A stretch of DNA of 64,000 nt from a virus. Its lineage: Duplodnaviria; Caudoviricetes. Below the pieces are notes generated by a model. That model did no database searches. It was given only the letters and a program-made list of their open reading frames with translations, and had not been told where the DNA came from. Of this stretch, positions 7,570 to 55,195 are shown piece by piece. Location of the stretch: IMG/VR virus record IMGVR_UViG_3300029288_000097, positions 49,977 to 113,976 of that record. The stretch is one strand, 5' to 3'. Positions within the stretch are counted from its first letter, which is position 1. Each line of letters opens with the position of its first letter. The position numbers were made by a program, and so were the translations under genes.

Positions 7570-7576
7570 GTAAGCC

Positions 7577-10302: not shown

Positions 10303-10312
10303 GTGGTCAACT

Positions 10313-10717: not shown

Positions 10718-10803
10718 AAAAATAGTTCCGACAGGACAGGTCTGACGCTTCCTTTTATGCTAAGCTAGTAGTGGCAAATCCTATAGAAAGGGAGACAAAG
10801 CTA

Positions 10804-11400: not shown

Positions 11401-11434
11401 TTAAGTTGAGTTCTGTCGTGCCGGTATGCTATAC

Positions 11435-11470
11435 TGAGAGCAGGTAATTGTACCAGATTACCTGCTCTCA
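11435..11470 (+). promoter_or_regulatory. 14-bp hairpin containing a CAGGTAATTGTACCAG box, just after a TTGAGT-18-TATACT promoter
   Basis: TGAGAGCAGGTAAT-tgtaccag-ATTACCTGCTCTCA; -10 at 11430-11435. Confidence 0.55.
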
Positions 11471-11491
11471 ATTCATTTAGGAGGCATCAAA

Positions 11492-12007
11492 TTGGCTAAA
11501 GAAGAGAAAGACACAGCTGTAAAACCGGAAAAGAAGTTCAAGTGGGATTCTACCTGTCTTGAACGCGATGAGTGCGAGATTGATCTGCGCAATGCTGATT
11601 CTAATGGACGGCCCTTTAAGTTTCTTGAGCTGTCACGCACTCCACTACTGAAGTTTGTTGAAGAGTGCATCGACCGGGAGTTTCTAAATGAAAAGGGTGA
11701 GCGTGAAGAGTTCACCAAAATTGCAGACTCACAGTTGGATGTACTTTGCCGGTATTTCTCAGAATCTACCAAGACCCCGAGTTTGGTAGTAAAGGGTGAC
11801 TATGATCCCACAATGGATAAAAATTACAGGTCACCTGAGTTCTTCAAAGAATTAGACATTACAGCTCGGGTATTCGGCGACCTGATTGAACAGTTCTTCA
11901 ATGTGCAGCATCTTGAGGAGATACTGTCAACGGGGGGAAACTGGCTGATGATTCCGACCGTCAGACGGGTTCAGAGACAGACGGAATCAGAAGACGCCAA
12001 CAACTAG
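11492..12007 (+). CDS. tail assembly chaperone (gpG-like)
   Basis: Between tube and tape measure genes; in-frame slippery site G GGA AAC at 11935-11941. Confidence 0.7.
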   Translation: MAKEEKDTAVKPEKKFKWDSTCLERDECEIDLRNADSNGRPFKFLELSRTPLLKFVEECIDREFLNEKGEREEFTKIADSQLDVLCRYFSESTKTPSLVVKGDYDPTMDKNYRSPEFFKELDITARVFGDLIEQFFNVQHLEEILSTGGNWLMIPTVRRVQRQTESEDANN

Positions 12008-12339
12008 ACTCATCCTCGATCCCAGGTAGTGATTTTGCTGGAGTAGTTGATTGTATTACAGGTGATAAAGGCTGGTCATTAGAATATGTGCTCAGTCTTA
12101 CATTTAGGCAAATAGCAACCTTATGGGAACGCTACTGGGATCGAACTATGTGGAACCTGAATCAACAAGCCCGTCTTGGTGGTTTAGGATTGCTTGGTGG
12201 TCTCGGCAGTAGCAGCTCTACCGATAATACTGAATCAGCCAATACCCAAAAAGTGATCGATGCGACATCAGATGATGGTGTGGCAGAAATGGTTGGTTTA
12301 GGACTTCCTGTGAAGTTCATACCAGCCCAAGAGGGTTAA
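11941..12339 (+). CDS. -1 frameshift extension of tail assembly chaperone (gpT-like)
   Basis: The -1 frame is stop-free from 11941 into ORF 12088-12339 (GWSLEYVLSLTFRQ). Confidence 0.7.
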   Translation: MADDSDRQTGSETDGIRRRQQLDSSSIPGSDFAGVVDCITGDKGWSLEYVLSLTFRQIATLWERYWDRTMWNLNQQARLGGLGLLGGLGSSSSTDNTESANTQKVIDATSDDGVAEMVGLGLPVKFIPAQEG

Positions 12340-12346
12340 GGTTACT

Positions 12347-15300
12347 ATGCGCATACCAATTGAGATAGATTCATCTGCAGTATCTCCAGGATTACGGCAA
12401 GCCGAAAATCTTGTTGATAGTGCAATGGCTCGTATGCAAGCTCGAATCAATGCCGTCAAAGGCCCGTCCTTCGCTGGAGGAGCCGGAGGCGGTCTTGGTT
12501 TGGCTACTGATCTACGTCTGGCTAATAAAGAGGTCAGTGGCATTGCAAAAACGCTCACTGGTATGGGTAGCCTTACTACAGGACTTGGAATAGGTGCAGC
12601 AGTCGGTGGAGCTGCACTGCTTGAACAAAGTCTCGAACGATCTATCCGCAAGGCAAAAGAGTTTCAAACGGCTACATTGGCTATCGCGGCCACCATGGGT
12701 TCTATCGGCGAGTGGAAAAGTGGACCTGGTGGCAAAGCTCTAGCTCCTGTTCAGCAAAACCAACGTAATATGTGGGAAGCTGAAAAATACAGGATGAAAA
12801 TACTTGAGCGATCAGCCAAAAACATCCTCACATTTGAAGAACAGCTTAGTGCTTTCCAAGCAGGGCTTTCTTCAGGTGCTCGAAAAGGTTTGAATCCTGA
12901 CCAGATCATGAAGTTGACCGAGCAAACTGCCGTAGTTGCTAAAACTCTCGGTTTGCGCGGTGAGCAGATTGCAAACGCCTCACGTCTTATGATGGGTGGT
13001 GGTGTCAATATTGCACGTTCTACTATAGGACGAGCTTTAGGTATCACCAATGCAGATATTGCTACCCGACAAGGACCAGAACTTGCTAAGTTTCTTAACC
13101 AACGCATGAAGGGTTTTGAAGCGATGCAGGGACAGTTCGAGAACTCCATAGAAGGTTTAACCTCTACTCTGGAAGCTAAAATTGATGTACTAGCTTCCAG
13201 AGTTGGTGAAAAGTTCTTCAAGGGCATTGCACCTACAATGAAACAGATCGGGTTACTTGGTGAACCTGATCGTTCTGAGTATCGCTCTGATGCTGAATAT
13301 AAGAAAGCTGTAGCCAGCTATCAGAAGCAATCACAGACAATGGATAAAGTTGTCGGAGCTGCTGCTGAAGCATTCAATGGTCTTTTTGAGGGAGTAAAAG
13401 GTGTCGTAGAATCGGACACATTCCAGACTCTACTCGAAGTGCTTGTACAGATAGCCAAGGTATCGAAGACTATTATGCTGGCAGCTATTTTCAGCAAAAT
13501 AGCTGGTGCTGTCGGAGCTGCTACTGGTGCTCTTCAAAAGTTTCTAGCTATGGCCCGTAGTGTAGGCACTATAGGTGGTGGAGGTGGTGGAACAGGTGCC
13601 AGTGGCATCATGCCAGCCGACATCGTAGCCAGTGTCTTGACAGGTGGTGGTCGTGGAGCCAGAGGTGTTGGTGCCCAAGGTCTTGGAGCTGAATTAGGTT
13701 TAGCTGGTTTTAGTGGAGCATCTGCAGAAGATGTTGCACGGCGTTTTGGTGTAAACCCAGAGGCCAAATATGCCACTCGTATGCGCCAGGTTCGAGGTAT
13801 AGTTGGTGGTCGTTCTGCTATGGCTGAGGCAATGGTTATGGCTCTCGGCTATGGTGCTGCGGGTCTACCTCAAACTCAACGTTATGGTGCCAATTTCTCA
13901 GCTGAAGTAGAAAGACAGGCAAAAATTGCCGGTAAGCGTGACTACTACAGTATCAAAGGTGGTATACGTGGCCTAAGCGAAGAGGAAGCTGTTCTCTCGA
14001 ATAGATCACAATTTCTTGGTGGAACTGAACGCCAAGCTGCGATGGAACGATTAAATGCCATCAATATGGAAAAGATGGCTCTCGCGCAGCAAATGACAAT
14101 GATACCTTATGCCTCTCTTCCATTTGCAGGTAAGATGGGCCGTCGTTGGAGTGGATTCACTGGACATGCACAAGAAGCTCTTCCTATTGCTATGCTTGGC
14201 CTTATGGGTGGTCAGATGGCAAAAGACATCATTCCTGGCACAATAGGAGATGTCATAGGGAATGTTGTTCAGGGTGGCTCTCTCGGATATTTAGGTAAAG
14301 GTATCAGACCAGGTTTAACTACCAAAGGTGCTGTTGGAGCTGGTGTTGTTGCTGGTATTGGCTCAAGTCTTGTAGACTACTACCAAAAGAAGTCTATGGA
14401 AGACTTGAACAAAGGCACTACAGGTGGGCAATATGCAGGCATGGCTCTTGGCGGGGCTGCTAAGTGGGGTGCAGCTGGTTTTATGGTTGGTGGCCCTCTG
14501 GGAGCAGCTGCCGGAGCCATCGGTGGTGCTGTACTTGAGCCTCTTATCTCTTCTATGAAAAAAGCACAAGCTCAAGCTGAAGCTTCTGCTAAAGCTCTTG
14601 AAGAGATGTCTGCCAAGTTCCCACAGGCAGCTCAAATCACAAAAACCAGTCAACAAATACGTAATATAGATAGACAATTACAAACAGGCCGGAAACCAAG
14701 TACAGAACGTGATCCAAATTGGTTTGCACGTCAGTACTGGGCTTTATCTGGTTGGATGGGTGCACCTGTTAAAGTAACGGAACCCGGTCGAAAACTCACA
14801 GCAGAAGAACAGAAAGACTTAGCTGCTCGCCGTGATGCTCTAAAAACTCGCCGGGAGCAAGAACGTCAAGTTGCAATATTTGAAGGCGATCAGGGACTCA
14901 CTGAAGACCTGAATAGACGCAAAGCACAACTCGATCTCATTTCCCAGTATGGTGGAAAGAGTATCGATACTCAGATGCGCATTGCAAAGCTTCAAGCTGA
15001 GTATTCAGCAAAATCTCTGGAAAAAGACAAAGCTCAGATTCCAGTTGATTTCAATATGGAAGCATTCGGCAAGCGCATGAAAGACAAGAGTAATCCTCAA
15101 TATCAACAGTGGCAGAAGGAATACCAAAAGTGGCGACTCGGACGCACAGATGAAGAAATCAAAAATGGCAAAGCTGATTATGCTTCATTTATCTCATCCA
15201 AAGCTGACGAAGAAGTAAGGAAGCTGCAAGAAGCAGCCTTACCCGCTCTTAAAGCAGAAGTTCGTGCAGCAGGCGAAGCTACTGTTAAGTCACTACAGCT

Positions 15301-17131
15301 ACAGTCAGGTGCTATGCAAGCTGCCGGACAAGATCGAGGATCACTGGCAGCTTATAAAGAATATCAGGCCAGCCTTTATGAAAAAGCTCCTTTATTCAAG
15401 GGTGGCATGGGTAGCACTGAGTTTAAGCAATATCAATCTGGCATGCTCGGTCAGTATAAGCGTGACCTACGAGAACAATATGATGTTGGTATGCTCGGGC
15501 TGCAAAGCAATAACTTGGAACGTACTAAGTTAGGGCTTGAACGCACACGTCTACGTGAGGATGTATCACTGAAACTTTCTCATCTTCAGTTAGATGCACA
15601 GCGTATCGACATTACCGGCCAGCAGACTCAACTTGAATCAAGACGACTTAATCTGCAGGGACAACAACTCGATCTCACAGGCCAAAAGCTCGGTTTACAA
15701 GCTCAAGCCTTACAAGATGAACGTGCTCAAACTCTTTTAGGTATCGCTAAGGGTCAGCAATCGATGAAACGGGTTACCGAAGATTATCAGATTGCTAAGC
15801 CTGAAGCACAATTGAACTATCAAGGGGCTCTTCTCAACGAGCGGAGAGCCAACATATCACCACAACTATTTTATGGTAATCTCGGCCCAACATCAGAAGC
15901 CGCAAGTGCTATTCGATATAAGGTTGAAGCTGAGTTTGCCAGTAAGTTTGATCCTGGAAAATATGAATCTGCTTATCGAGAAAGTCTGAAGATTCAAGAA
16001 GAGCAGATGGGTGTTGATAAGCAGCTGGCCGAACAAAATACAAAACGAGCTGCTTTAGGGCTTGATCGTGTTGAAGAGGATTATGCTTCTGCAATGGCCG
16101 ATCTAACTGTTCAGCTACGTGGCATGGAACGTCACATGGCTGAAATTGGGATCAGCGAAAAAGAGAATGCAATCGCTCAAGAAAGTAACAAGATCGATAA
16201 AGATGAGAATGCACTTGCGAAAAAGGGTGTGACTCTTAAAGAGCAGGAAAACGAACTTGCTAAGAAAGAGAATGCTATCTCCCAGCAACGCACTGTGCAA
16301 GATGCCCAAATCACCGATAAAGAGCTTGCCATTAAACAGAAGAGTTTAGACATCCAGGACAAAAAACAGCGGCGTGATATAGGTGAACTTGGTAAAACAC
16401 TCAAAGACATTGGTGGCACAAATATACCAGGTTTACCAGGCGTTGGTGGTGTTCCGACCTTGACTGGAAAACTGCCTACTGGAGTTCCTACAGGTAGTCC
16501 ACAATTCACCATGCCTGCTGGAGTTCCTGGAGGTATGGGTGGTGCACCAATCAAGCCTGGACAAACAATTGATATGGGTGGTGGAGTAAAAGCTATTGCC
16601 AAGATGACCACTGATGGCAAACTTATGTTTGAGGGTGCCAACGGTTATTCCATTATGGATCAGACTGCCAAGGGTAAGTTTGTAAATGCTCTTGAATCTG
16701 GAAATGTTGGTGAGGCACTTAATCTCAGCAATCCGACAATGACACAGGCTAAACTCGAACGAATAAGTTCTCTCCCTGAGCTTGGTCAAAAGTTCGGACT
16801 TGAAAATACAGCCATACATGCTGCATATGCTAAGCCACTTGGCTCTAAAAAAGACTGGGAGCGTGTGCGTGAATTGATGGATAACGGCATGACCAAAGAA
16901 CAGGCCAGCCAACAAGTTATCAATTCTAATGCTCAACGTGCTTATCAAGATGATGTTGCTAAACAAAAAGCGGCCTCTGGTGGTGGTAGAAAAGAAATGG
17001 GTAGCATCACAGTTAATGCACCAGTCAGTATAACATCAGAACAGAAAATTGATCCATCATCTCTTCGCCGAGACTTTGAAACTTGGCTTAATGATTGGTG
17101 TAAGACTCAACAACTGAAAGGAGGCGGCTAA
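12347..17131 (+). CDS. tape measure protein
   Basis: 1594 aa, Ala/Gly-rich helical and coiled-coil segments, follows the chaperone pair. Confidence 0.85.
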   Translation: MRIPIEIDSSAVSPGLRQAENLVDSAMARMQARINAVKGPSFAGGAGGGLGLATDLRLANKEVSGIAKTLTGMGSLTTGLGIGAAVGGAALLEQSLERSIRKAKEFQTATLAIAATMGSIGEWKSGPGGKALAPVQQNQRNMWEAEKYRMKILERSAKNILTFEEQLSAFQAGLSSGARKGLNPDQIMKLTEQTAVVAKTLGLRGEQIANASRLMMGGGVNIARSTIGRALGITNADIATRQGPELAKFLNQRMKGFEAMQGQFENSIEGLTSTLEAKIDVLASRVGEKFFKGIAPTMKQIGLLGEPDRSEYRSDAEYKKAVASYQKQSQTMDKVVGAAAEAFNGLFEGVKGVVESDTFQTLLEVLVQIAKVSKTIMLAAIFSKIAGAVGAATGALQKFLAMARSVGTIGGGGGGTGASGIMPADIVASVLTGGGRGARGVGAQGLGAELGLAGFSGASAEDVARRFGVNPEAKYATRMRQVRGIVGGRSAMAEAMVMALGYGAAGLPQTQRYGANFSAEVERQAKIAGKRDYYSIKGGIRGLSEEEAVLSNRSQFLGGTERQAAMERLNAINMEKMALAQQMTMIPYASLPFAGKMGRRWSGFTGHAQEALPIAMLGLMGGQMAKDIIPGTIGDVIGNVVQGGSLGYLGKGIRPGLTTKGAVGAGVVAGIGSSLVDYYQKKSMEDLNKGTTGGQYAGMALGGAAKWGAAGFMVGGPLGAAAGAIGGAVLEPLISSMKKAQAQAEASAKALEEMSAKFPQAAQITKTSQQIRNIDRQLQTGRKPSTERDPNWFARQYWALSGWMGAPVKVTEPGRKLTAEEQKDLAARRDALKTRREQERQVAIFEGDQGLTEDLNRRKAQLDLISQYGGKSIDTQMRIAKLQAEYSAKSLEKDKAQIPVDFNMEAFGKRMKDKSNPQYQQWQKEYQKWRLGRTDEEIKNGKADYASFISSKADEEVRKLQEAALPALKAEVRAAGEATVKSLQLQSGAMQAAGQDRGSLAAYKEYQASLYEKAPLFKGGMGSTEFKQYQSGMLGQYKRDLREQYDVGMLGLQSNNLERTKLGLERTRLREDVSLKLSHLQLDAQRIDITGQQTQLESRRLNLQGQQLDLTGQKLGLQAQALQDERAQTLLGIAKGQQSMKRVTEDYQIAKPEAQLNYQGALLNERRANISPQLFYGNLGPTSEAASAIRYKVEAEFASKFDPGKYESAYRESLKIQEEQMGVDKQLAEQNTKRAALGLDRVEEDYASAMADLTVQLRGMERHMAEIGISEKENAIAQESNKIDKDENALAKKGVTLKEQENELAKKENAISQQRTVQDAQITDKELAIKQKSLDIQDKKQRRDIGELGKTLKDIGGTNIPGLPGVGGVPTLTGKLPTGVPTGSPQFTMPAGVPGGMGGAPIKPGQTIDMGGGVKAIAKMTTDGKLMFEGANGYSIMDQTAKGKFVNALESGNVGEALNLSNPTMTQAKLERISSLPELGQKFGLENTAIHAAYAKPLGSKKDWERVRELMDNGMTKEQASQQVINSNAQRAYQDDVAKQKAASGGGRKEMGSITVNAPVSITSEQKIDPSSLRRDFETWLNDWCKTQQLKGGG

Positions 17132-45195: not shown

Positions 45196-45392
45196 GTGCC
45201 TGGGTTTAGAGGTCTAAGTTTTTGTACTTCAGAGACATGATTATAGCTGATAGATTATAGCCCATAGTCCATAGCGTCTGAACCTAGCAGACTGGTATTT
45301 GTAACAGGCCAGGGTATGGGGGTTTGTCACAACCTGAACACATGTCTGACATATTCCCACACCCTGGTATTTATAACAGGTGCCTGGTAAAC

Positions 45393-45902
45393 TTACCGGG
45401 CCTCCAAGGTTTTTCTAGCTCGCTTTAATATCTTGTTCAGCTCTCGCGTATCCATGCTAGCTTCAAAAGTTGTTAATCGATCCATCACATACTCAACATC
45501 TCTCAAAACACTATACATTCTACTGGGTTTCAGTGTACCACTTGCTTTAGCTCTACACATTGCCCTGCAAGCGGCGACTATGTATGTTATCTCATCACCA
45601 AACCCCATAAGTACATGAAGCTCTGGCAATGACTTTTGGTACCCTGTGTTTGGAAAACTATCCCATGCATTGCCAAAATCAGCAGGTACAGGTTTGCCCC
45701 ATAAAGTCTTGACTATAACGCATGCTAGTGAATGATGCCCCGAACCATAGTTTAGTATTCTAATGCACTCCTCAAGCTTGTTTGCACGGAATAGCCTCAA
45801 GAAGTTCTTAAACATCTGACTAAACACTGTAACCGACTTCTCATTCACTCTTTTTGTGCTTACATTATTGCGTACCTTTTTTGTGCTTGCCTTAACTGTC
45901 AT
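45393..45902 (-). CDS. cassette gene, basic hypothetical protein
   Basis: CTTGGAGG RBS; box 45964-45979 is 23 bp from CATAAT. Confidence 0.75.
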   Translation of the reverse strand: MTVKASTKKVRNNVSTKRVNEKSVTVFSQMFKNFLRLFRANKLEECIRILNYGSGHHSLACVIVKTLWGKPVPADFGNAWDSFPNTGYQKSLPELHVLMGFGDEITYIVAACRAMCRAKASGTLKPSRMYSVLRDVEYVMDRLTTFEASMDTRELNKILKRARKTLEAR

Positions 45903-45985
45903 GATCGTAACCTCCAAGCTTGCCCTACATGTATATTATGCCATGTATAGCTCAGTCTGGGAACTGGTAAATGTACCAGTTTTTA

Positions 45986-46099
45986 CTAATGTCCAAGCAA
46001 GGCATGAATCGAATTATACAGGCCGATTCCTGCGTAAACTATAGGCACAAGCAAAATGATAATACCGATCAATGTTACTTTCCAATTCATTGTAGACAT
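45986..46099 (-). CDS. 37-aa single-TM peptide (not in the ORF track)
   Basis: MSTMNWKVTLIGIIILLVPIVYAGIGLYNSIHALLGH; GGGGG RBS; upstream GGCATAATATACATGTA identical to the neighbouring promoter. Confidence 0.55.
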   Translation of the reverse strand: MSTMNWKVTLIGIIILLVPIVYAGIGLYNSIHALLGH

Positions 46100-46180
46100 A
46101 GTATATATCCCCCGTTCTAAGTTGCTTACATGTATATTATGCCGTACCCTACATGTAAGCAACCTAGTACTTATACTTGA

Positions 46181-46489
46181 TTATGCTATGAACTCTTTAA
46201 GCTCATGTTTTGCCCTTGCCTGTTGAACCTCATGGGCTGTAACAGTAACTAAGTGTGTACCACTATCAGCGGCATATTCACCCTTACCATTGACCATGAG
46301 CAAGCCGTATTTACAATGGACTATGAGACCATCATGCCCATGCACAAAGTCCCATGTATTCTTGACCGTTTCCTCGTGCTCTATACGCTCTATAAGCCCG
46401 TTTCCTGCGAGTCTGTCATGCTCTATAAGGTAGCAATGACCGTTATACATTCCCTCATAATCGCCTTGTGTGTTGTTTCCTGCGTTCAT
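46181..46489 (-). CDS. cassette gene, hypothetical protein
   Basis: CTTGGAGG RBS; box 46561-46576 is 22 bp from CATAAT. Confidence 0.75.
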   Translation of the reverse strand: MNAGNNTQGDYEGMYNGHCYLIEHDRLAGNGLIERIEHEETVKNTWDFVHGHDGLIVHCKYGLLMVNGKGEYAADSGTHLVTVTAHEVQQARAKHELKEFIA

Positions 46490-46721
46490 GATTCTAACCT
46501 CCAAGTATCAAGCGTTTTTGCCTTACACTTAGATTATGCCTTGTTTCGAGAGAATCATCACAGGTAAAAATACCGGTTTTCCACACACCCAAAACCCCGT
46601 ACTTTTACCAGGGTCCGAAAACCCAGTAATTGTACCAGCTGGTACACCGATCCGTATTTATACCAGCTGGTACAATTACCAGGTCCGCAGCAGTCTTCGC
46701 AGCCCGCAGCACACACGCAGC

Positions 46722-46765
46722 CAAAAAAAGGCGGGCAAGACCGCAGCCCATACGCAGCCTTGCCC
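46722..46765 (-). terminator. terminator of cassette 46795-47352
   Basis: Minus strand GGGCAAG..CTTGCCC gcc TTTTTTT. Confidence 0.55.
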
Positions 46766-46794
46766 AAGTAAGAGGAATGACCACCAACCAAACA

Positions 46795-47352
46795 TTAAAG
46801 CCGTTCGACTTTATAAAGCAGTTTTTCGTAAAGCTCTGATCCCAGAAAAAACTTCAACTCCTTGGCCGTATCACCACAGCCCTTGTATATGCTTTCAGCT
46901 TTTCGGGAATCCTCATCATACCCAAAATCAGCGCAAAAATCTTCAAAGTTCCGAGCACAATCATAAGCCGAAGCATCAGACGCCAAACAATCAATAAGCT
47001 GTTGTACTTCCGGCTTTACCGGGTCACAGCAGTCTATAAGCCATTTAGCACCGTTTTTGCTCATCATGGCCTTATTCTTCATCTGTTCAATCTCGCGCTT
47101 ATCAGGCCAAAAACCACGGGCATGAGCGATCTTGTTTCTATCCGGTGTTCTAAGCCCTAAGCCGGTTTTGAACTCAGTACTCATGGTTTTGCCCGCCATG
47201 CTCAATGTAACTAACCAACCATCCATAGAATGAGGCTCTTTTACACCTTCCCGGTTTTTCTCCATTGTCGTTTTAATCCCGGTATGCACAAAATCGGCCT
47301 TTATACCGTGCTCAGTGCAAAACTGTTCCATTGTGATTATGACTTCTTCCAT
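46795..47352 (-). CDS. cassette gene, conserved-looking phage hypothetical protein
   Basis: CTTGGAGG RBS before ATG 47352; CLASDAS..NFEDFCADFGYDEDSRKAE.IY motif; box 47417-47432 is 23 bp from TATACT. Confidence 0.8.
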   Translation of the reverse strand: MEEVIITMEQFCTEHGIKADFVHTGIKTTMEKNREGVKEPHSMDGWLVTLSMAGKTMSTEFKTGLGLRTPDRNKIAHARGFWPDKREIEQMKNKAMMSKNGAKWLIDCCDPVKPEVQQLIDCLASDASAYDCARNFEDFCADFGYDEDSRKAESIYKGCGDTAKELKFFLGSELYEKLLYKVERL

Positions 47353-47617
47353 ACCCGTTACCTCCAAGCAACTTGAGTGTATAATTAAGTATACCGCAAA
47401 AAACGCGCCTTTTGAACTGGTAAAAATACCAGAAAAACAAAAGTAGTGACCAAACGGGGAGGCATCAGCCCGTCCAGCCACTACATGGTAATTTTACCAG
47501 GTTTGGCTGAAAAATGGCCGTCAAACTGGCTGAAAGTGTACCAGCTGGTACAATTACCAGGTACAAGCGAAAACCCAGTATTTCTACTGGGCTCGCCTTG
47601 CCTATCGCTTGGAGGTT

Positions 47618-47905
47618 TTAGGCAAAACTGTATTTGACTGCTTCGGTGCGCATGCCGTCAAGCCAAGCACAAAACGACCGTTGAGCATCGGGTGTACGGA
47701 ACTTGAAGAGCTTCTGTCCATTTATTCGCCTTCCGTTATCCTCAAAACACTCTACTGACACCTTATGAGTCACAAAAGCTTCTGTACATCGCTTGTCACT
47801 CCATACTTCAATATGAACTGATGCACAAGCCTTGAAAGTATCAAGCCAAAAGCCCGAAGGCCGATCACTAAGCCCTACATAATCGAATGATGGTTCATTT
47901 ACCAT
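47618..47905 (-). CDS. cassette gene, hypothetical protein
   Basis: Third ORF of the 48316-47618 unit. Confidence 0.55.
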   Translation of the reverse strand: MVNEPSFDYVGLSDRPSGFWLDTFKACASVHIEVWSDKRCTEAFVTHKVSVECFEDNGRRINGQKLFKFRTPDAQRSFCAWLDGMRTEAVKYSFA

Positions 47906-48122
47906 CGATCAATACCCCCATATCCCGGAGAAGTGCTTCAAAGTCATGCAGGACTGCATCACGACTTCCGCGAAGATCAAACTCCCGCTTTATGATAGCG
48001 TAAGCCGATTCCCCGTGACTTCGGCGCATGCCCTTGCATTCAAGCTTCAGAGCACCTTTAAGCGACAATAAGCGATAAGCTTCTAACTTAGTAGGAGTAT
48101 CAGCGACAATAACCTTACCCAT
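47895..48122 (-). CDS. cassette gene, hypothetical protein
   Basis: LKGALKLECKGMRRS..SAYAIIKREF; second ORF of the unit. Confidence 0.65.
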   Translation of the reverse strand: MGKVIVADTPTKLEAYRLLSLKGALKLECKGMRRSHGESAYAIIKREFDLRGSRDAVLHDFEALLRDMGVLIDGK

Positions 48123-48124
48123 GA

Positions 48125-48316
48125 CTATGCCCCTTCCTCGAAGTCAAACTCTACCTTGCCCACGGTGTTACCATTTATATCACGTATTCCATGATAATAG
48201 GTATGGTCTTGGTTTGTCTCTATGTCCTCGGCTATCTTCCGAAGAATGCGGGCACATTCCGCATGGTCACTAACGGCATTCTCATTATTTACCTTGATTC
48301 TCAAATTAAACGGCAT
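48125..48316 (-). CDS. cassette gene, hypothetical protein
   Basis: CTTGGAGG RBS; ARILRKIAE..IRDINGNTVG motif; box 48381-48396 is 23 bp from TATACT. Confidence 0.75.
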   Translation of the reverse strand: MPFNLRIKVNNENAVSDHAECARILRKIAEDIETNQDHTYYHGIRDINGNTVGKVEFDFEEGA

Positions 48317-48451
48317 ACCAGTTACCTCCAAGCAACTTGATTGTATAACTAAGTATACCGCACATTTTAAGCCAAGTCACCTGTCAAAAATACCAGTATT
48401 TCAATACCCGGTAAATGTACCAGCTGGTACACATTTTCACGCACAAAAATA

Positions 48452-48625
48452 CGGGTAAGTTGATGGTTGCAACGTCCGCGAGCTGAACCTTCACCTGTTT
48501 TATATCCACATGGGACAGGTACTCAAGTGCTCCTTTCGGGCATCAACTTACCCGCGCCATATAGCACTATGCGCATAGTGACACATCTATATGGGTACTA
48601 CTCAATTCCCTGTGCTGGGAATCCT
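48452..48625 (-). ncRNA. candidate structured RNA at the 3' end of a cassette
   Basis: 14-bp perfect stem 48452-48465/48541-48554 enclosing ACCTGT/ACAGGT and a GAAA-loop hairpin; palindrome CACTATGCGCATAGTG 48565-48580; no ORF. Confidence 0.4.
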
Positions 48626-48631
48626 TACGAC

Positions 48632-48811
48632 TTACCCACCATACGCTTTATAGTGAGCGGGCTTTTTGCCGGAAGTCACATTATTGATACATGAAACAAG
48701 TTCGGCGCGATTCTCGCGTATAAACTGACTCTTGCTCATGTGCGAAGACTTCCACCAATTGTAAAGCCCTTCATCGTTGTCAATCCACTGTGCTATGTCT
48801 CTATTGCTCAT
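48632..48811 (-). CDS. 59-aa cassette gene (not in the ORF track)
   Basis: MSNRDIAQWIDNDEGLYNWW...; GGAG RBS; overlaps the upstream stop (ATGA). Confidence 0.65.
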   Translation of the reverse strand: MSNRDIAQWIDNDEGLYNWWKSSHMSKSQFIRENRAELVSCINNVTSGKKPAHYKAYGG

Positions 48812-48996
48812 GGTCTCACTCCATCAATGTATTGTTGAGCACATTCATGCTCGGAGAAACCTGCTTCAAAAGCGGGCATTAAGTAACTCTCTTCGATGTC
48901 CACATCGTCAAGATCAATGTCAACACCTTTTTCTTCTAATATCCTTTGAACTTCAATAGCATAAAAGTCAAAATCTTGGTGAACTCTACCACTCAT
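48808..48996 (-). CDS. acidic cassette gene, hypothetical protein
   Basis: GCTTGGAGGTAACGCATG leader identical to that at 49167-49184. Confidence 0.7.
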   Translation of the reverse strand: MSGRVHQDFDFYAIEVQRILEEKGVDIDLDDVDIEESYLMPAFEAGFSEHECAQQYIDGVRP

Positions 48997-49010
48997 GCGT
49001 TACCTCCAAG

Positions 49011-49169
49011 CTAATCTATTGCATGTTCAGGCAATCCCACTTCGTACTCATTCCCACAAGATGCACATGTAACTATCTGACTTGAGGGATATGCTATCAT
49101 CTTATTAAGTGTTTCACAATTCGGGCATTCCCACTCATAGCCGGATGCTATAATATCTACACTTTCCAT
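49011..49169 (-). CDS. 52-aa zinc-ribbon protein (not in the ORF track)
   Basis: MESVDIIASGYEWECPNC...CASCG; CTTGGAGG RBS; box 49232-49247 is 23 bp from TATACT. Confidence 0.7.
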   Translation of the reverse strand: MESVDIIASGYEWECPNCETLNKMIAYPSSQIVTCASCGNEYEVGLPEHAID

Positions 49170-49332
49170 GCGTTACCTCCAAGCAAATTGATTATATACT
49201 TAAGTATACAGCATAAAACGCGCCTTTTGAACTGGTAAAAATACCTGTTTATTTCACCCTGGTAAATGTACCAGCTGGTACACATTTTCACAAAGCCAAA
49301 ACCTGGTATTTCTACCAGGATCGGCATTCACC

Positions 49333-50187
49333 CTAATGATGAGCTGATATTGATATACGACTTTGCGGGTCTTTCATATCCGGGTCATAGTTTATCGCTA
49401 TGGCACCTGCGTACAACCATCTTGACGTATCCTGCAAATGCCAATTCCATGACACATCGGGCTTGAACTCTGGACTGTTGTCATTCACATTAAAGAATGC
49501 CGTTGACTGTCGGGCTTGATCCGACACCCGATCAAAACGACCAAAGCCGAAACCCAGTTTTGTTACAGGCACGTCTACCCATTCCTTATGATCTTCATTA
49601 TCGGCATCCTTAAGCTGTACCCGTTTTGACCTAAGCCGAAGATACCCAAGAATGGTATCACGTTCCCGGTTGTACCAATCTTGAAGCTTGAGCACATGAG
49701 GCTGTATTGTATTCCCGGTATGCTCATCATATACCCGGTACTCGAATGCTTCACGCATGTGCTCTGGTATTGAACCTCTAAGCTCATCAAACGATACCAT
49801 GAAACCATCGGCATTATTAAAGTCGGGTATAGGTTGAAAACCTGCCTTTTTTGCTTCATCATGAAGCATTATACCCGCCATATCACCCGAAACCGTATCA
49901 ACAGTAGTTAGTTCAATTCCGGGTTTGACAATAAAGAATACATTCCCTTGATTGTTTATGCCCGTGAAGTAAGACAAAGCCGACCACGGGTCATTTATAA
50001 AGCGATAGTAAGACGATGAGGTTATACTACCCCACTTTGTCACGACAATGACCGTAAGCACGCTCATAGAGTCCATAGACGGCCTGTCATACTCATTGAC
50101 AGACTGCGTTATACGTTCCCGTGCTTCCTCGTCAAATACCGTGCACTCATGCACAGCGTCTAAAAACATATCAGCAATACCTTTCAT
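49333..50187 (-). CDS. cassette gene, hypothetical protein
   Basis: CTTGGAGG RBS before ATG 50187; box 50246-50261. Confidence 0.75.
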   Translation of the reverse strand: MKGIADMFLDAVHECTVFDEEARERITQSVNEYDRPSMDSMSVLTVIVVTKWGSITSSSYYRFINDPWSALSYFTGINNQGNVFFIVKPGIELTTVDTVSGDMAGIMLHDEAKKAGFQPIPDFNNADGFMVSFDELRGSIPEHMREAFEYRVYDEHTGNTIQPHVLKLQDWYNRERDTILGYLRLRSKRVQLKDADNEDHKEWVDVPVTKLGFGFGRFDRVSDQARQSTAFFNVNDNSPEFKPDVSWNWHLQDTSRWLYAGAIAINYDPDMKDPQSRISISAHH

Positions 50188-50190
50188 GCC

Positions 50191-51032
50191 ATACCTCCAA
50201 GCTGAGTATATAATCAATTATCCCGCAAAAAGCACGCCAAGTCACCTGTCAAAAATACCAGTATTTCAATACCTGGTAATTGTACCAGCTGGTACACTTT
50301 AAGGATGAAACCACGACCTGGTAAATATACCAGGCCGCAGTCTTTAGAAGTCGAATGTTAATGTCAACTCATCGGGCTTTACATCGGGGAATGACTCTCG
50401 CAGCAAGTCCGATAAATGAGAATCACTATAACAGCCTTCAGCCGGATCATAGTCCATTATGGCATCAGCCACAAGCCCGCGTACAACCTCTTCATCTTCG
50501 GGCTTAGGATCATAACAACCATCTTCATCTAGTAGAATCTTAATACCCCGTTCTTCGGCCATTTTAGCGACTTCATACCTTGCCCATGCATCATAAGCAC
50601 TACATGCCTGCTCATACTCCCGGCTTGCCCAATCTTCTTCGTCAAGTACAGGATAGTCGTCAAGCTTGTCTATCAGCTCAAGCACTCTTTCCATGGTCTT
50701 GGTTGCTGTAACTCTAACCATGATATGCTCATACCATCCAACAGCCCAATGATTAGTACGCATAATCTGGACTGACTTACCGGATACCCGCCTAAGTTCC
50801 TTGTATGCAGCATCAAAGTTACTTTGTGCGAGCAAGTCAGAATCACGATGTTGACCGAACGGGGCAAAACCCCAAACGGTCAAGTCAAGATCACCCCAGT
50901 ACATAAAATCTTTTGGGCGTTTCAGCATACCCTCTTTTAACTCTGTAAGGTTCATGACCTATACCTCCAAGCTGAGTATATAATCAATTATCCCGCAAAA
51001 AGCACGCCATGTCACCTGTCAAAAATACCAGT
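50191..51032. repeat. 72-bp direct repeat (box, promoter, RBS) at 50191-50262 and 50961-51032
   Basis: Identical except one base; the two copies flank gene 50344-50955. Confidence 0.9.
50344..50955 (-). CDS. cassette gene, phage hypothetical protein
   Basis: RDSDLLAQSNF, HWAVGWYE, LDDYPVLDEED motifs; CTTGGAGG RBS. Confidence 0.8.
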   Translation of the reverse strand: MNLTELKEGMLKRPKDFMYWGDLDLTVWGFAPFGQHRDSDLLAQSNFDAAYKELRRVSGKSVQIMRTNHWAVGWYEHIMVRVTATKTMERVLELIDKLDDYPVLDEEDWASREYEQACSAYDAWARYEVAKMAEERGIKILLDEDGCYDPKPEDEEVVRGLVADAIMDYDPAEGCYSDSHLSDLLRESFPDVKPDELTLTFDF

Positions 51033-51148
51033 TTTTCCAGAGAGCAAAATGTGTACCAGCTGGTACAATTACCAGGTATGAGAAAACCCGGTAATTGTAC
51101 CAGGATTCTCTCTATGCCGCAGCCGCAGTCATGCCGCAGCCGCAGTCA

Positions 51149-51490
51149 CTATTCACCTATACCCCGTTCAATGGCTAATTCAGCTTCACCCTTGTTCCAG
51201 TCCTCTTCTACCCCACTGATAGCCCAATAATCATTGTAAATCATCATATAAGGCTTTCCACGAGTGATCTTAGCCGTACGTAAGTACTGTTGACATTTAT
51301 CTACCATATGCCCGTCTTTGTGCATACGTTTCTTGATAAGCCCAAGATTATACGGTTCCTTGTTCAGAATGCCCTTAAGCCAATACAGGAAACGGGATTC
51401 ACCCCGAGCAAGGTTTACCCCATAAAACTTCGGGTCACCCGGTTCCCTCTTAACCGTCAATCTATCCTCTGTTATTGTGATCTTAGGCAT
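51149..51490 (-). CDS. cassette gene, hypothetical protein
   Basis: Last of a 4-ORF unit; IKKRMHKDGHMVD motif. Confidence 0.7.
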   Translation of the reverse strand: MPKITITEDRLTVKREPGDPKFYGVNLARGESRFLYWLKGILNKEPYNLGLIKKRMHKDGHMVDKCQQYLRTAKITRGKPYMMIYNDYWAISGVEEDWNKGEAELAIERGIGE

Positions 51491-51491
51491 G

Positions 51492-51689
51492 TTACCCAGC
51501 CCTTTCATACAAGTGTGGTTTAGTCCGACAATCATAGACGTATTGACCAGACTTCACAGGCATGGCATTATCCCAGCCGTAAAGCTTCCTCATACCCGTA
51601 AGGTTCCCGTTTGGGCCAAAGTTCGGAAGGCCATGTAACTGTCGTGCAAACGGGTCTTTTGTTGACAGATAACGCATAGGGTACTTCAT
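51492..51689 (-). CDS. cassette gene, hypothetical protein
   Basis: Coupled ORF; PNFGPNGNLTGMRKLYGW. Confidence 0.6.
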   Translation of the reverse strand: MKYPMRYLSTKDPFARQLHGLPNFGPNGNLTGMRKLYGWDNAMPVKSGQYVYDCRTKPHLYERAG

Positions 51690-51973
51690 CTTGCACTTTC
51701 CGGTTTAGAACATCGGGGCAAAAAGAAGTCATACAAAACCGGTCCCATGCCCGTTCGGTTCATCTTATTCTGGATTCCCACAACATCATGGCAAAAATCA
51801 AATTGAGGGAATGACAATAGCCGTTCAAAGTCGAGTGGTATACCATTGCAATGAACCGCTTCCAAGTCCATTGTAAGGCTCAAAGAATCGTCAACAATAT
51901 TGTATTCCCATGCACGTGATACAATCTTCTGTATCAATTCATGCTCTTCACGAGTCGCGTTAAACTCCCACAT
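51686..51973 (-). CDS. DUF6874-like protein
   Basis: SLTMDLEAVHCNGIPLDFERLL.F..FDF.HDV.GI...MNR...FLPRC; GGAGG RBS. Confidence 0.7.
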   Translation of the reverse strand: MWEFNATREEHELIQKIVSRAWEYNIVDDSLSLTMDLEAVHCNGIPLDFERLLSFPQFDFCHDVVGIQNKMNRTGMGPVLYDFFLPRCSKPESAR

Positions 51974-52139
51974 ATTCCGATTCCTCCCGATAACGTATGC
52001 CGTACTTGGCAAGCAAGGCACGCGCTTCATCTTTAGTCATACCTCCCATGATCCTTGCCCCTGCATCACTCATGGCAAGAGTCCGTTTGGCTATCTTGAG
52101 TCGGTGTTTTTCAGGAGTGCTCAAATGACTTTTTCCCAT
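51960..52139 (-). CDS. cassette gene, small basic protein
   Basis: CTTGGAGG RBS before ATG 52139; box 52202-52217. Confidence 0.7.
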   Translation of the reverse strand: MGKSHLSTPEKHRLKIAKRTLAMSDAGARIMGGMTKDEARALLAKYGIRYREESEYVGV

Positions 52140-52312
52140 TGACTTCAACCTCCAAGTTGACCATATACTCAAGTATACAGCATAAACCAAGCCAATGTCA
52201 CCTGTAAAAAATACCAGTTTTCCATAGGCCGGAAACCTGGTAATTGTACCAGCTGGTACACTTTTTATGTGCAGAGAAAACCTGGTAATTGTACCAGGCT
52301 TCCTCGCTGCTG

Positions 52313-53011
52313 CTATCCGTTGGCAAGCCGCAGTTGTCCCGCAGCCTCTTGAGCTTTTGTCAATGCCGCAGCCGCATCACTTACTGCCTTCTCAGCTCTG
52401 CTTACCGCGCCTTCCTTCCAGCGTGGAGCTATACTTTCAGCCGCCGATTCTGCTTCCTGTTTACAAGCATCTATGCCATAAAAACCCCAGCAACTATCGG
52501 AAAGATCATCCATGTCATTCCCATTCTCATCCTTGATTATATAGCCGAATATCTCCCCGTTTGCCCATTGAGAATAGGTTTCCACTTCGGCATTCATACA
52601 CTTGCGGGCTTTTTCCCTTACCGTGCGCGTAGCACGCTTTTTACCCCATTCCTCTATCATTGTGCGATGTTCGCAAAGGATAAAGCCTACTCTTCCCCAA
52701 TCCCAGCCGTGTGAGTCGTATGCTGAAAACCCTGTGGTATTGTAAGCAACACCTGAATGCTCATAACGGAACACGGGAAGAATCTCACAGCCGGGATAGC
52801 ACGCCATGACAGCCTTGTCAAGTTCATCCCAGCCGGAATAGTCCTGCGTAGGAAAGAACGTACCGCCAAGCTCATTCACTCCTATGTGGTTTCTACCCTC
52901 ATAAATGACAAGCTTGCCTGCATTATCCCATTCCCTCGGAGATTCCCCACACTCATCGGGATGAATCTCTATTGTCAGTCCTGCATGTTCGTAAGTCTCA
53001 ATTGCTTCCAT
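52313..53011 (-). CDS. cassette gene, phage hypothetical protein
   Basis: SPREWDN, LPVFRYEHSG, GWDWGRVGF, DSCWGFYG motifs; CTTGGAGG RBS; box 53073-53088. Confidence 0.8.
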   Translation of the reverse strand: MEAIETYEHAGLTIEIHPDECGESPREWDNAGKLVIYEGRNHIGVNELGGTFFPTQDYSGWDELDKAVMACYPGCEILPVFRYEHSGVAYNTTGFSAYDSHGWDWGRVGFILCEHRTMIEEWGKKRATRTVREKARKCMNAEVETYSQWANGEIFGYIIKDENGNDMDDLSDSCWGFYGIDACKQEAESAAESIAPRWKEGAVSRAEKAVSDAAAALTKAQEAAGQLRLANG

Positions 53012-53144
53012 CGTATCCTCCAAGCAAGTTGATTGTATAACTAAGTATATCGCATAAATTGCGCCTTGTGACCTGCTAAAAATACCTGTTTTTTACCGGC
53101 CAAAAACCTGGTAATTGTACCAGCTGGTACACTTTTTGGCTGAA

Positions 53145-53178
53145 AAAATGGCTGAAACTGTCACATTTCAGCCATTTT
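53145..53178 (-). terminator. hairpin after the RuvB-like unit
   Basis: AAAATGGCTGAAA-ctgtcaca-TTTCAGCCATTTT. Confidence 0.6.
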
Positions 53179-53188
53179 CCGTTCACTT

Positions 53189-53449
53189 TTAGTGCTTTAT
53201 GTCAATTTTTGCCAATACAGCCTCAAGCCGGGTTTGGAACTCATCATGCTTGACCCGCTTGGTTTTGTCTGATTGCCAATAGTTCAAATGCTTGCCCGTG
53301 GTCGTGCTCCACACGTTTTCAGAGACCACTGTACCCTCACCCGGCGCGTAGAATCCCACACATGTTTCGTAGGAAAAGTACAGCTCAATTAGCCCTATGG
53401 TCACTTCATACTGAGTCGGTGAATTAACGTTCTTGAGTTTAACTTTCAT
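53189..53449 (-). CDS. phage hypothetical protein
   Basis: YFSYETCV, WSTTTGKHLN motifs; AGGAG RBS. Confidence 0.75.
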   Translation of the reverse strand: MKVKLKNVNSPTQYEVTIGLIELYFSYETCVGFYAPGEGTVVSENVWSTTTGKHLNYWQSDKTKRVKHDEFQTRLEAVLAKIDIKH

Positions 53450-54342
53450 GCTTGTCTCCTTCCTCTACTTGATTGTTTAACTAACACCCTACCTCTGTTA
53501 GTCGTCATGAGTAAACCCATGAAAATAAGATGGCTTTCCATCATCTCGATAATAGGTTTAGATTCTCGAAGTGCACTCGCTATGTTATTAAGGGATAACG
53601 GTCTATCAGCTTCGGCCAATAGATTCAGGTATGCCAAGTCTTTTTGGTCAAGGCCAAGTTCGTTAATACCCCGCATGTCAAAATACTCTTCAGACTTAAT
53701 GCCATAACGTTGTATTGATTCCCCATAACTGATAGCCAAACGGGGCACGCCTTTTGACCGTCTGGCTACATCATGTATAGTCTCATCTGATAACTTTGGA
53801 AAGTTACGTTTGATTATTTCCTCAATATCTTCTACAGGATAAGCCGTCAAGTGGAATTGTAAAGCTAACCGATCCCGTAAGGGTGCACTCATTTTTTCCG
53901 GGTTTGTAGTGCCAAAAAAGTAACATATATCAGGCAACCAATTGATTAAACCATCATCTGGTGAATAGGTATGACCATCCTCGATAGGACGAAGTAAAGC
54001 GTCAGAAGCACTTGCACTGAGGCCATGCGCTTCGTCTATCATGAGCAAGGTTTTCCGGGCATTCTTACCGGCTACACCCTTAGCATCATAGCCTTCGATG
54101 GATAATGACATAAGCAACTTGAATATGTCCGATTCATCCCAATTAGGCTGTGCCACACATTCCCTGAAGTCACAGTTTGGTATCTCACTTGCAAGGGCAC
54201 AAGCCAATGATGTTTTGCCTAAACCGGGGCCACCATATGCCAGAATTGATCTCGGGAAACCCGAAGCTAACTCCATCTCAAGCACTTTTTTCACGACCGA
54301 TTGACCGACATATTCATGCAAGCAAGTTGGACGTTTACTCAA
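53446..54342 (-). CDS. ruvB: RuvB-like AAA+ Holliday junction branch-migration ATPase
   Basis: RP..L.EYVGQ, Walker A GGPGLGKT, Walker B IDEAH, GTTN, PLRDR, RSKGVPRLA, C-terminal winged helix with T.RGR. Confidence 0.8.
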   Translation of the reverse strand: MSKRPTCLHEYVGQSVVKKVLEMELASGFPRSILAYGGPGLGKTSLACALASEIPNCDFRECVAQPNWDESDIFKLLMSLSIEGYDAKGVAGKNARKTLLMIDEAHGLSASASDALLRPIEDGHTYSPDDGLINWLPDICYFFGTTNPEKMSAPLRDRLALQFHLTAYPVEDIEEIIKRNFPKLSDETIHDVARRSKGVPRLAISYGESIQRYGIKSEEYFDMRGINELGLDQKDLAYLNLLAEADRPLSLNNIASALRESKPIIEMMESHLIFMGLLMTTNRGRVLVKQSSRGRRQA

Positions 54343-54421
54343 AATGTATCACCTGCCTTTCCCTCCCATGATGCCATGAAGCATGGTGCATGTCAACAGG
54401 TAAAAGTACGGGGATTCAAAA

Positions 54422-54486
54422 CCCTGGTAATTGTACCAGCTGGTACACATGAACACAATGTGTACCAGCTGGTACAATTACCAGGG
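54422..54486. repeat. perfect 29-bp inverted repeat with 7-nt loop (double palindrome)
   Basis: CCCTGGTAATTGTACCAGCTGGTACACAT-gaacaca-ATGTGTACCAGCTGGTACAATTACCAGGG. Confidence 0.95.
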
Positions 54487-54577
54487 TGCATGTTTCTATG
54501 GGTGTATGTTTATGTGAGGTTCGCAGCAGCCGCAGCTCTCATGACATGTCGCTCGCAGCCTATACCCACTCGCAGCT

Positions 54578-54922
54578 TCAGTCCTTACTCGTTTGGTTTC
54601 GACAGTCCTTACACACGTACTTGAATCCACTCGACTGAAACTTATCACGATGATAGTATTCATCTGTTAATGGTAAAAGCTCCTCGCAGCTCTTACATCG
54701 CCGCAGCTTAGTTCCATCAGGACGTGTCTCAGTGCGTTCGTTGGGTTCCCGCAGGATCACATCAGGTGATGTTGCTAAGATACGGCGTACCATGGTATAT
54801 GACATCTGCAAACCTTTAGCTATTGCTCGCAGCGAATAATGTTGCTCATCATAATAATGGATCACTGCAGCCCGCACTCTATCTTCATCCCACTTCGGGT
54901 ATTTGCCGGATTTAATTGCCAT
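54578..54922 (-). CDS. HTH plus C4 zinc-finger protein (candidate regulator)
   Basis: YSLRAIAKGLQMSYTMVRRIL helix-turn-helix; CKSC...CKDC; box 54958-54973 is 23 bp from TAGACT. Confidence 0.7.
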   Translation of the reverse strand: MAIKSGKYPKWDEDRVRAAVIHYYDEQHYSLRAIAKGLQMSYTMVRRILATSPDVILREPNERTETRPDGTKLRRCKSCEELLPLTDEYYHRDKFQSSGFKYVCKDCRNQTSKD

Positions 54923-54972
54923 ACCCCTAGTCTATCACAACGCTCGCAGCTATGCTACTGGTATAAATACGG

Positions 54973-55195
54973 GTTTTGGCCGTTTGATTCACAGTTTTGG
55001 CCGTTTGATTGGCTACTTGATTCACAGTTTTGGCCGTTTGATTGGCTACTTGATTCATGGGTTTTGGCCGTTTGATTCACGAAAAAATAGGGCATGCCAC
55101 GAAAAAGTGAATCAAGTAGCCAATCAAGTAGCCAATCAAGTAGCCAATCAAGTAGCCAATCAAACGGCCAAGAGCATAAATCATACGGCCAAAAC
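54973..55195. repeat. symmetric inverted iteron-like array (12-mer AATCAARYRGCC, 6 reverse and 6 forward copies); candidate origin or terminus
   Basis: GTTTTGGCCGTTTGATT at 54973, 54994, 55027, 55061; AATCAAGTAGCC x4 at 55110-55157; central GGCATGCC 55091-55098; extra copy at 55450. Confidence 0.9.

Follow-up and report, generated by a model that had tools for sequence, protein, structure and literature searches.

An array of small-gene transcription units was analysed in a 64,000-nucleotide stretch of DNA (the window), which forms the last 64 kb of the 113,976-bp virus record IMGVR_UViG_3300029288_000097 (Caudoviricetes), a record rated complete by CheckV. The array lies on the minus strand at positions 45292-54973 of the window and consists of 12 transcription units, separated at nine junctions by modules containing the 16-bp palindrome TGTACCAGCTGGTACA. 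From its anatomy and its conservation in related phages, the junction module is probably a terminator-operator-promoter cassette resembling the promoter-early stem-loop (PeSL) elements of T4-type phages, to which a lineage-specific palindromic operator has been added, with recombination at the modules as a by-product. An earlier note on this DNA had proposed an integron-like array with crossover at the palindrome. This proposal was not retained, as no tyrosine or serine recombinase is encoded in the complete genome, each unit has its own promoter and terminator in place of a shared Pc promoter, and the resolved breakpoints fall at the ribosome-binding site (RBS) or start codon and at the stop codon or terminator.

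The palindrome is confined to the array. Ten exact copies and one copy with a single mismatch were found, all between positions 46631 and 54476 (11 observed versus 0.03 expected from shuffled sequences), and no copy is present outside the array in the whole record. The nine junction positions listed by the earlier note were all recovered, as were the intervals of 771 to 1316 bp between them, and second copies were located at 46659 (one mismatch) and at 54461. About 12 minus-strand units with one to four small open reading frames (ORFs) had been described and exactly 12 were counted; the distal ones (46181-46489, 45986-46099 and 45393-45902) possess promoters and lack the palindrome. The array converges with plus-strand late or auxiliary genes at about 45160 and diverges from plus-strand genes at about 55700, and the GC skew changes sign across the region. 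This hyperplastic region, 10 kb of the 114-kb genome, holds all 11 palindromes and about 30 of the 46 genome-wide matches to the promoter box described below. It is a hypervariable region of a lytic-looking phage and is probably expressed early, a timing assumed from the quality of its promoters and RBSs.

Anatomy of the junction module

The intergenic modules measure about 130-300 bp. Read on the coding strand, a junction begins with the stop codon of the upstream unit, often followed by GCTGCGG-type repeats, and continues with a T-run terminator hairpin, a short spacer and the palindrome. After a further spacer comes the box CTGGTA-N4-TACCAG, which directly abuts a -35-like hexamer (GTGACA, GTGACT or TTCAAA); the module is completed by a 17-nt spacer, a -10 element reading TATACT or GATAAT and, after some 25 nt of conserved leader, the CTTGGAGG RBS with the ATG. 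Box, -10 element and RBS are thus present as the earlier note had described them. By sequence, the module displays what defines a PeSL element, namely a composite of sigma-70-like promoter and stem-loop terminator with the Shine-Dalgarno (SD) sequence and start codon at its 3' edge.

The palindrome consists of a TACCAG half-site abutting a CTGGTA half-site, so that it amounts to one full box with an extra half-site. The complete box lies on the left or right side of the palindrome, depending on the copy, and in most junctions the centre of the palindrome is located about 79-87 bp upstream of the start site. In seven of the nine junctions the terminator stem is the box itself (CCTGGTA-N4-TACCAGG followed by TTTT). 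The two others, 53116 and 46631, carry classical GC-rich terminators unrelated to the box, suggesting that termination was selected in its own right. Since the palindrome is situated downstream of the terminator, it lies in DNA that is mostly untranscribed. The junction RNAs fold much better than shuffled sequences in eight of nine cases (z from -3.4 to -8.7). A search of Rfam with the junction hairpins gave nothing above threshold; microRNA-like matches below it were rejected as spurious.

The junction sequences are mosaics of each other. The earlier note had reported that two junctions share 72 bp with one mismatch. The pair is real (51052 and 50281), and the figures had to be corrected: by blastn, the promoter/leader copies share 77 nt with 2 mismatches (97% identity). 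The features of the nine junctions, in the order of transcription, are as follows.

Junction 1, 54432-54476: two exact palindromes (54432-54447 and 54461-54476), each abutting a complete box; 30-bp inverted repeat.
Junction 2, palindrome 53116-53131: classical intrinsic terminator 53143-53180; proximal box 53073-53088.
Junction 3, palindrome 52245-52260: box-built terminator hairpin 52271-52310; proximal box 52202-52217.
Junction 4, palindrome 51052-51067: terminator-like box 51087-51104; proximal box 51016-51031; promoter GTGACA, 17 nt, GATAAT.
Junction 5, palindrome 50281-50296: terminator hairpin 50309-50342; proximal box 50246-50261.
Junction 6, palindrome 49267-49282: terminator-like box 49302-49319; proximal box 49232-49247.
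Junction 7, palindrome 48416-48431: proximal box 48381-48396; about 190 nt of non-coding DNA upstream.
Junction 8, palindrome 47537-47552: terminator hairpin at about 47566-47597; proximal box 47417-47432; whole junction of 265 nt about 80% identical to its orthologue in the related contig L083 (blastn).
Junction 9, 46631-46674: exact palindrome 46631-46646 and one-mismatch copy 46659-46674; strong classical terminator 46732-46766; proximal box 46561-46576.

Three further sequence features were observed at the junctions. The non-coding stretch of about 190 nt upstream of the 48416 palindrome (48440-48630) contains an inverted repeat and a 40-nt block that is kept in L083; it gave no Rfam match and may encode a small RNA or a regulatory site. 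At junction 47537, directly after the stop codon (47600-47612), the sequence CCTCCAAG is the exact complement of the CTTGGAGG RBS; it is also kept in L083 and may represent an anti-SD element. The GCTGCGG repeat, in the sense of the array, has 9 of its 14 genomic copies in the array, mostly right after stop codons, with stretches at 46685-46747, 51117-51140, 52339-52372 and 54530-54707; the array of another relative, L082, contains 11-13 copies of GCTGCGGCTGCGG-type 10-mers. Possible roles of the GCTGCGG repeat are those of a Chi-like site, of a signal related to Rho, or of a component of the terminator context.

Two palindrome types in related phages

Related phages were identified by protein searches with the RuvB-like AAA+ ATPase gene of the array and a ligase gene, followed by look-up of the contigs. 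Arrays were recovered from at least seven related metagenome lineages. Megablast of the array against the INPHARED phages gave no match, single-sequence and profile searches of IMG/VR with the RuvB-like protein did not find any relatives, and a scan of IMG/VR for the exact palindrome returned single chance copies only, in 58 contigs. The relatives, with their similarity to the window and the core of their palindrome, are listed below.

L083, 10-kb contig: ligase 80%, CCAG core.
L065 and L069, short contigs: RuvB 74%, CCAG core.
L064, L070 and L071, short contigs: RuvB about 60%, CCAG core.
L072, short contig: RuvB 49%, CCAG core.
L063 plus L079 (R63), circular 112-kb contig: RuvB 53%, ligase 71%, CTAG core.
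L078, 92.6-kb contig: ligase 74%, CTAG core.
L080, 114.8-kb contig: ligase 62%, CTAG core.
L082, 99-kb contig: ligase 51%, CTAG core.
L066 and L067, 11-kb contigs: RuvB 46%, CTAG core.
L074, short contig: RuvB 49%, CTAG core.

The R63 array was rebuilt from L063 plus L079; the 112,295-bp contig closes on itself with a 141-nt overlap, and the assembly break lies inside an array junction.

All ten related arrays share the common layout with a palindrome at the junctions. The core of this palindrome is either TACCAG followed by CTGGTA (TACCAGCTGGTA) or TACTAG followed by CTAGTA (TACTAGCTAGTA), and no third form was encountered. Within each genome the core is uniform, with the exception of one hybrid copy in L080. 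The latter has 14 copies in 7.9 kb, corresponding to almost one small gene per unit; in L082 the copies number 15. The promoter-proximal boxes of the CTAG genomes remain CWGGTA-N4-TAMCAG, which indicates that the switch between the two alleles is confined to the palindrome core. Uniform copies within a genome and discrete symmetric alternatives between genomes have, on this comparison, the look of a site co-evolving with a dimeric DNA-binding protein, for which the stoperators of Cluster A mycobacteriophages and their repressors provide a precedent (PMC6550527). L072, which is of the CCAG type, clusters with CTAG genomes in the RuvB tree (support 98/99), and monophyly of the CCAG type was rejected accordingly. 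Either the palindrome type changed more than once, or the region is a mosaic.

Beyond these relatives, a more distant contig (L081, RuvB 37%) harbours a similar run of small genes at 6700-15700, in which a non-palindromic repeat of about 21 nt, AAAGCACGAATAGGAATAGGT, occurs in six copies.

Variation of cargo among relatives

The cargo units of the window, all on the minus strand, are the following, listed from the head of the array.

54578-54922: F02, 114 aa, with N-terminal three-helix helix-turn-helix (HTH) and C-terminal CxxC...CxxC zinc ribbon; first gene of the array.
53446-54342: RuvB-like AAA+ ATPase with C-terminal winged helix; anchor gene in the search for relatives.
53189-53449: 86-aa gene sharing the unit of the RuvB-like gene; homologues in relatives carry DUF8033.
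52313-53011: 232-aa gene (phrog_6186), occupying slot 3.
51149-52139: four-gene unit of 59, 95 (DUF6874), 65 and 113 aa.
50344-50955: 203-aa gene; no homologue in the array DNA fetched from relatives.
49333-50187: 284-aa gene; no homologue in the fetched array DNA of relatives, no family match.
48632-49169: three-gene unit of 52 (zinc ribbon), 62 and 59 aa.
47618-48316: three-gene unit of 63, 75 and 95 aa.
46795-47352: 185-aa gene (phrog_4273), conserved distal anchor.
45393-46489: three distal units of 102, 37 (membrane peptide) and 169 aa, each with a promoter and without palindrome.

Apart from the RuvB-like AAA+ ATPase and the HTH-zinc-ribbon protein, the cargo, for which the earlier note had presumed anti-host or anti-defence roles, matched only families of unknown function.

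The earlier note had suggested that cargo is gained, lost or shuffled at the junctions. Homology maps of the relatives showed array ends that are conserved and a middle that is variable. The protein families follow a collinear order in all genomes (F02, RuvB, F03, F05/F09, F10, F07, g65, F11, F15, then F12, F16, F04, F13, F06, F14, F08). The absence of reordering leaves gain, loss and replacement, and the idea of shuffling was abandoned. In the alignments, cargo indeed varies, and in the clearest cases the edges of the variation lie in the junction modules, the palindrome itself belonging to the conserved flank and not being the breakpoint.

Slot 3 is occupied in different genomes by three unrelated genes, each between junctions. 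Between the F12 and F06 genes, the window encodes proteins of 63, 75 and 95 aa and L083 unrelated ones of 206 and 102 aa; here the two sequences lose homology at the RBS and regain it a few bases ahead of the stop codon, the 265-nt junction 47537 being kept. Contigs L065 and L069 show 2 differences across about 2.0 kb, from RuvB through the 233-aa gene with the internal junction included, as against about 62 within the 400 nt upstream of this stretch. The switch is located at the RuvB leader and divergence resumes directly after the next stop codon. In the window, the near-identical 77-nt promoter copies lie on both sides of the window-specific 203-aa gene. Like a moron, this unit (50344-50955) has its own promoter and terminator and is inserted between phage genes, with its flanks duplicated. 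Such duplicated flanks would follow from a single crossover with a circular cassette, and mini-circles have been proposed as exchange intermediates for PeSL elements (PMC2839356).

The junctions themselves are persistent. In 29 of 30 cases, a conserved gene adjacency has the same junction state in the genomes compared. Two genes that lie 1 nt apart in the window are separated in L072 by a full junction of 200 nt, the edges of which fit a deletion between TAA repeats. Over all genome pairs, 63 sides of synteny breaks were scored, with a junction in both, one or neither genome in 26, 26 and 11 cases (20.5, 31.4 and 11.1 under the null model). Taken together, the comparisons indicate that the junctions are stable regulatory fixtures and sometimes recombination seams.

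The promoter box and its candidate binding protein

When up to two mismatches were allowed, the box matched at the 46 sites of the whole genome mentioned above. A gene-facing TATACT/TATAAT-like hexamer follows 22-24 nt after the end of the box at about 22 promoters, which are distributed over both sides of the genome. Box promoters outside the array were found for example at genome positions 4661, 9657, 19077, 25272 and 37325 and at window positions 403, 56900 and 63092, and include the one that precedes the head gene. The non-array promoters have GGCTGAGC ahead of the -10 element and no palindrome; those of the array have TGCGG or TGCTG at this place and an upstream palindrome in addition. 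Two promoter classes with one common box can therefore be distinguished. The -35 elements, read by eye, match at about 4.0 of 6 positions in the array and 3.7 of 6 outside it. The stronger array -35s that a switch of the phi29 p4 type predicts were thus dropped from consideration, as both sets are alike.

No phage sigma factor was detected in the genome with the Sigma70_r2 and Sigma70_r4_2 domains. Sigma-70-family proteins (Pfam) were observed in some relatives (L080:8426-8926 and L081:16645-17550).

The best candidate for a box-reading factor is F02, which is kept at the head of the array in relatives. In its AlphaFold model (pLDDT 87.6), the N-terminus forms a domain of three helices. A Foldseek search of the whole model against the PDB matched this HTH domain only, to region 4 of sigma factors and to the domains by which DeoR, SorC and LsrR bind DNA, with TM-scores of about 0.65-0.7 on the target domains and weak E-values (0.07-0.1). 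The C-terminus is a zinc ribbon, a widespread module often found in tandem in other proteins.

Proposed mechanism and alternative explanations

In the mechanism considered most probable, the module would end the upstream unit by its intrinsic terminator, the invariant palindrome between terminator and promoter would be the operator of a dimeric lineage-specific DNA-binding protein, and the next unit would start from a sigma-70-type promoter with the box directly before the -35, a conserved leader and a strong RBS. A conserved factor, possibly F02, would read the box at all phage promoters, and the array-specific palindrome would let the whole set of units switch together. Binding of these sites by a protein, the nature of that protein, the timing of expression and the direction of regulation are inferred. 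As the modules are long direct repeats, general recombination in them would replace, delete and insert cargo with ORF-precise edges. Turnover of cargo would then be a by-product of the layout, as with T4-type PeSLs, and not the work of a dedicated capture system.

Several observations weigh against this mechanism. The gap between palindrome and proximal box is variable (19-20 nt in five junctions, 27 in two, 54 and 104 in the others). A T run follows the palindrome on the plus strand at four or five junctions, and the palindrome could also form a hairpin in the RNA of read-through transcripts or terminate antisense transcription. The recognition helix of F02 does not co-vary with the CCAG or CTAG type among five sequences, so that F02 is a more plausible reader of the conserved box than of the variable palindrome core. 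The similar quality of the -35 elements in both promoter sets weakens a simple switch model of the phi29 p4 type, and the early timing is an assumption made from promoter and RBS quality. With regard to recombination, junction-edged exchange was seen in few pairs only, and genomes differ within units too, the neighbours of F10, F04, F12 and F16 differing inside units. At the deep divergence of the genomes, the enrichment of breakpoints at junctions over all pairs (26 versus 20.5 expected) was not significant (P = 0.09), and the view of junctions as exclusive breakpoints was given up.

An unlikely alternative is that boxes and palindrome are sites of a host protein, a global regulator or nucleoid protein exploited by the phage. 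It would explain the box at promoters across the genome, including array units that would be transcribed before any phage protein exists, and is in line with the lack of a detected phage sigma factor and with the absence of co-variation between F02 and the palindrome type. Both types, however, occur among close relatives and in some cases in the same samples (for example JGI 3300014204, with L065 of the CCAG and L067 of the CTAG type), and the type does not follow the RuvB tree; a phage-borne specificity factor is the better fit, unless the hosts differ. A purely RNA-level element, in which transcript hairpins would serve in termination, attenuation, processing or stability, or nut-like antitermination without any sequence-specific DNA-binding protein, is rather improbable. 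The strong folding of the junction RNAs, the terminator-like pattern of box hairpins and T runs, and the symmetric change from CCAG to CTAG, which preserves pairing, speak in its favour. It does not account for the proximal box, whose distance to the -10 is constant at about 22 promoters and which lies upstream of the start site, hence untranscribed from that promoter. The palindrome copies are moreover identical in sequence, whereas terminators usually conserve structure over sequence. The palindrome also sits downstream of the terminator, is retained at the two junctions with unrelated classical terminators, and would form a much weaker stem in its CTAG form.

Dedicated integron-like capture, with a site- or structure-specific recombinase that recognises the palindrome, excises units as circles and inserts them, is very improbable. 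In its favour, the sequence of the repeats is constant while the units that they delimit vary in content, some whole units have been exchanged for others between junctions that are conserved, palindromes are doubled at both ends of the array, and a RuvB-like ATPase stands at its head in all relatives. The earlier note had seen no integrase in the window, and the search was extended to the complete 113,976-bp genome: neither Phage_integrase (PF00589) nor Resolvase domains were matched, as opposed to 14 of 14 and 12 of 14 control genomes, respectively, and RecA, RecT and ERF were not found in the genome either. The integron is therefore not supported. Capture is further contradicted by the collinear family order of all relatives, the many differences within units, the conserved junction states, and the junction present or absent between the same two genes, which fits a deletion at TAA microhomology. 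Finally, the palindrome as target of a non-canonical phage machine, possibly involving the RuvB-like ATPase, that insulates the units and catalyses excision and insertion of cassettes independently of a recombinase, is hardly probable at all; if true, the CCAG and CTAG forms would be incompatible exchange groups.

Neighbouring features

Between F02 and the divergent plus-strand genes (window 54973-55165) lies an iteron field with four copies of GTTTTGGCCGTTTGATT, four tandem copies of GTAGCCAATCAA and two inverted copies. Different iterons occupy the same place in relatives, one 13-nt copy being the difference between L066 and L067. With the RuvB-like ATPase next to it, this field is a candidate replication origin or master control region. 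Elsewhere in the window, a single ORF of 1058 aa (1672-4848) matches both head maturation protease and major capsid protein. The only tRNA is located outside the array.

Relation to known systems

The earlier note had pointed to PeSL elements and SPO1-type early regions as precedents, and both are apt. PeSLs, the promoter-early stem-loop cassettes found in T4-type phages, are described by Arbiol et al. (2010; PMC2839356) and Comeau et al. (2014; PMC4122927). In both systems, composite intergenic modules of at least about 100 bp combine a sigma-70-like promoter, a stem-loop terminator and an SD sequence, are clustered in a hyperplastic region rich in small ORFans, flank (here in the clearest cases) insertions, deletions and replacements between relatives, and are duplicated around a lineage-specific gene. 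The phage described here is, however, not T4-like, having a fused protease-capsid head gene and a 114-kb genome. Its module contains an extra invariant lineage-specific palindrome derived from the half-site of a genome-wide box, its terminator lies upstream of the promoter and not within it, and the surplus of breakpoints at modules does not reach significance at the sampled divergence.

The SPO1 host-takeover module was reportedly described by Stewart and colleagues in 1998. The array resembles it in the clustering of small genes, here probably early ones, that are divided among many short operons with strong promoters and RBSs of their own, but homology between the genes is absent. To our knowledge, no shared palindromic operator has been described for the SPO1 module. 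The term host-takeover module is used in PMC6873191 and PMC10531801.

Stoperators of Cluster A mycobacteriophages are asymmetric 13-bp sites that are oriented with transcription and spread genome-wide. They are bound by a monomeric immunity repressor that blocks elongation, and their consensus co-varies with the phage-encoded DNA-binding protein (PMC6550527, PMC9283540). The many copies of one short site per genome and a consensus that differs between related phages are common to both systems. The sites described here are instead perfect palindromes, restricted to one array and placed upstream of promoters, and no integrase or repressor/lysogeny module was seen in the genome.

With integrons, the array has in common variable gene units separated by palindromic repeats (imperfectly conserved). 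It differs from them in that no IntI tyrosine recombinase adjoins it, its cassettes are not promoterless under one promoter but have their own box, -35/-10, leader, RBS and terminator, crossover was not located inside the repeat as in attC, and cassettes are not reordered. A possible model for the operator is the phi29 regulator p4, a small DNA-binding protein encoded by the phage, which has its sites in inverted repeats immediately upstream of promoters and coordinates early and late classes. It is said to have been characterised by Monsalve and colleagues in 1996 (EMBO J 15:383) and by Rojo and Salas, whose papers appear among the references of PMC4461284. The likeness involves no relationship in sequence or fold, and -35 quality does not separate the promoter classes here.

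What is new in this array is a putative palindromic operator built from the half-site of a promoter box, existing as two alleles and added to a PeSL/SPO1-like layout. The PeSL idea, in which standard promoter-terminator modules provide portable homology for gene turnover, is hereby extended to a group of phages with no relationship to T4. For this uncultured clade, with genomes of about 90-115 kb, the array represents a defined regulatory grammar, with a box at every promoter and an array-specific palindrome of two alleles. The two alleles open the search for the cognate DNA-binding protein, and the operator type could be checked as a barrier to exchange or cross-regulation between co-infecting relatives.

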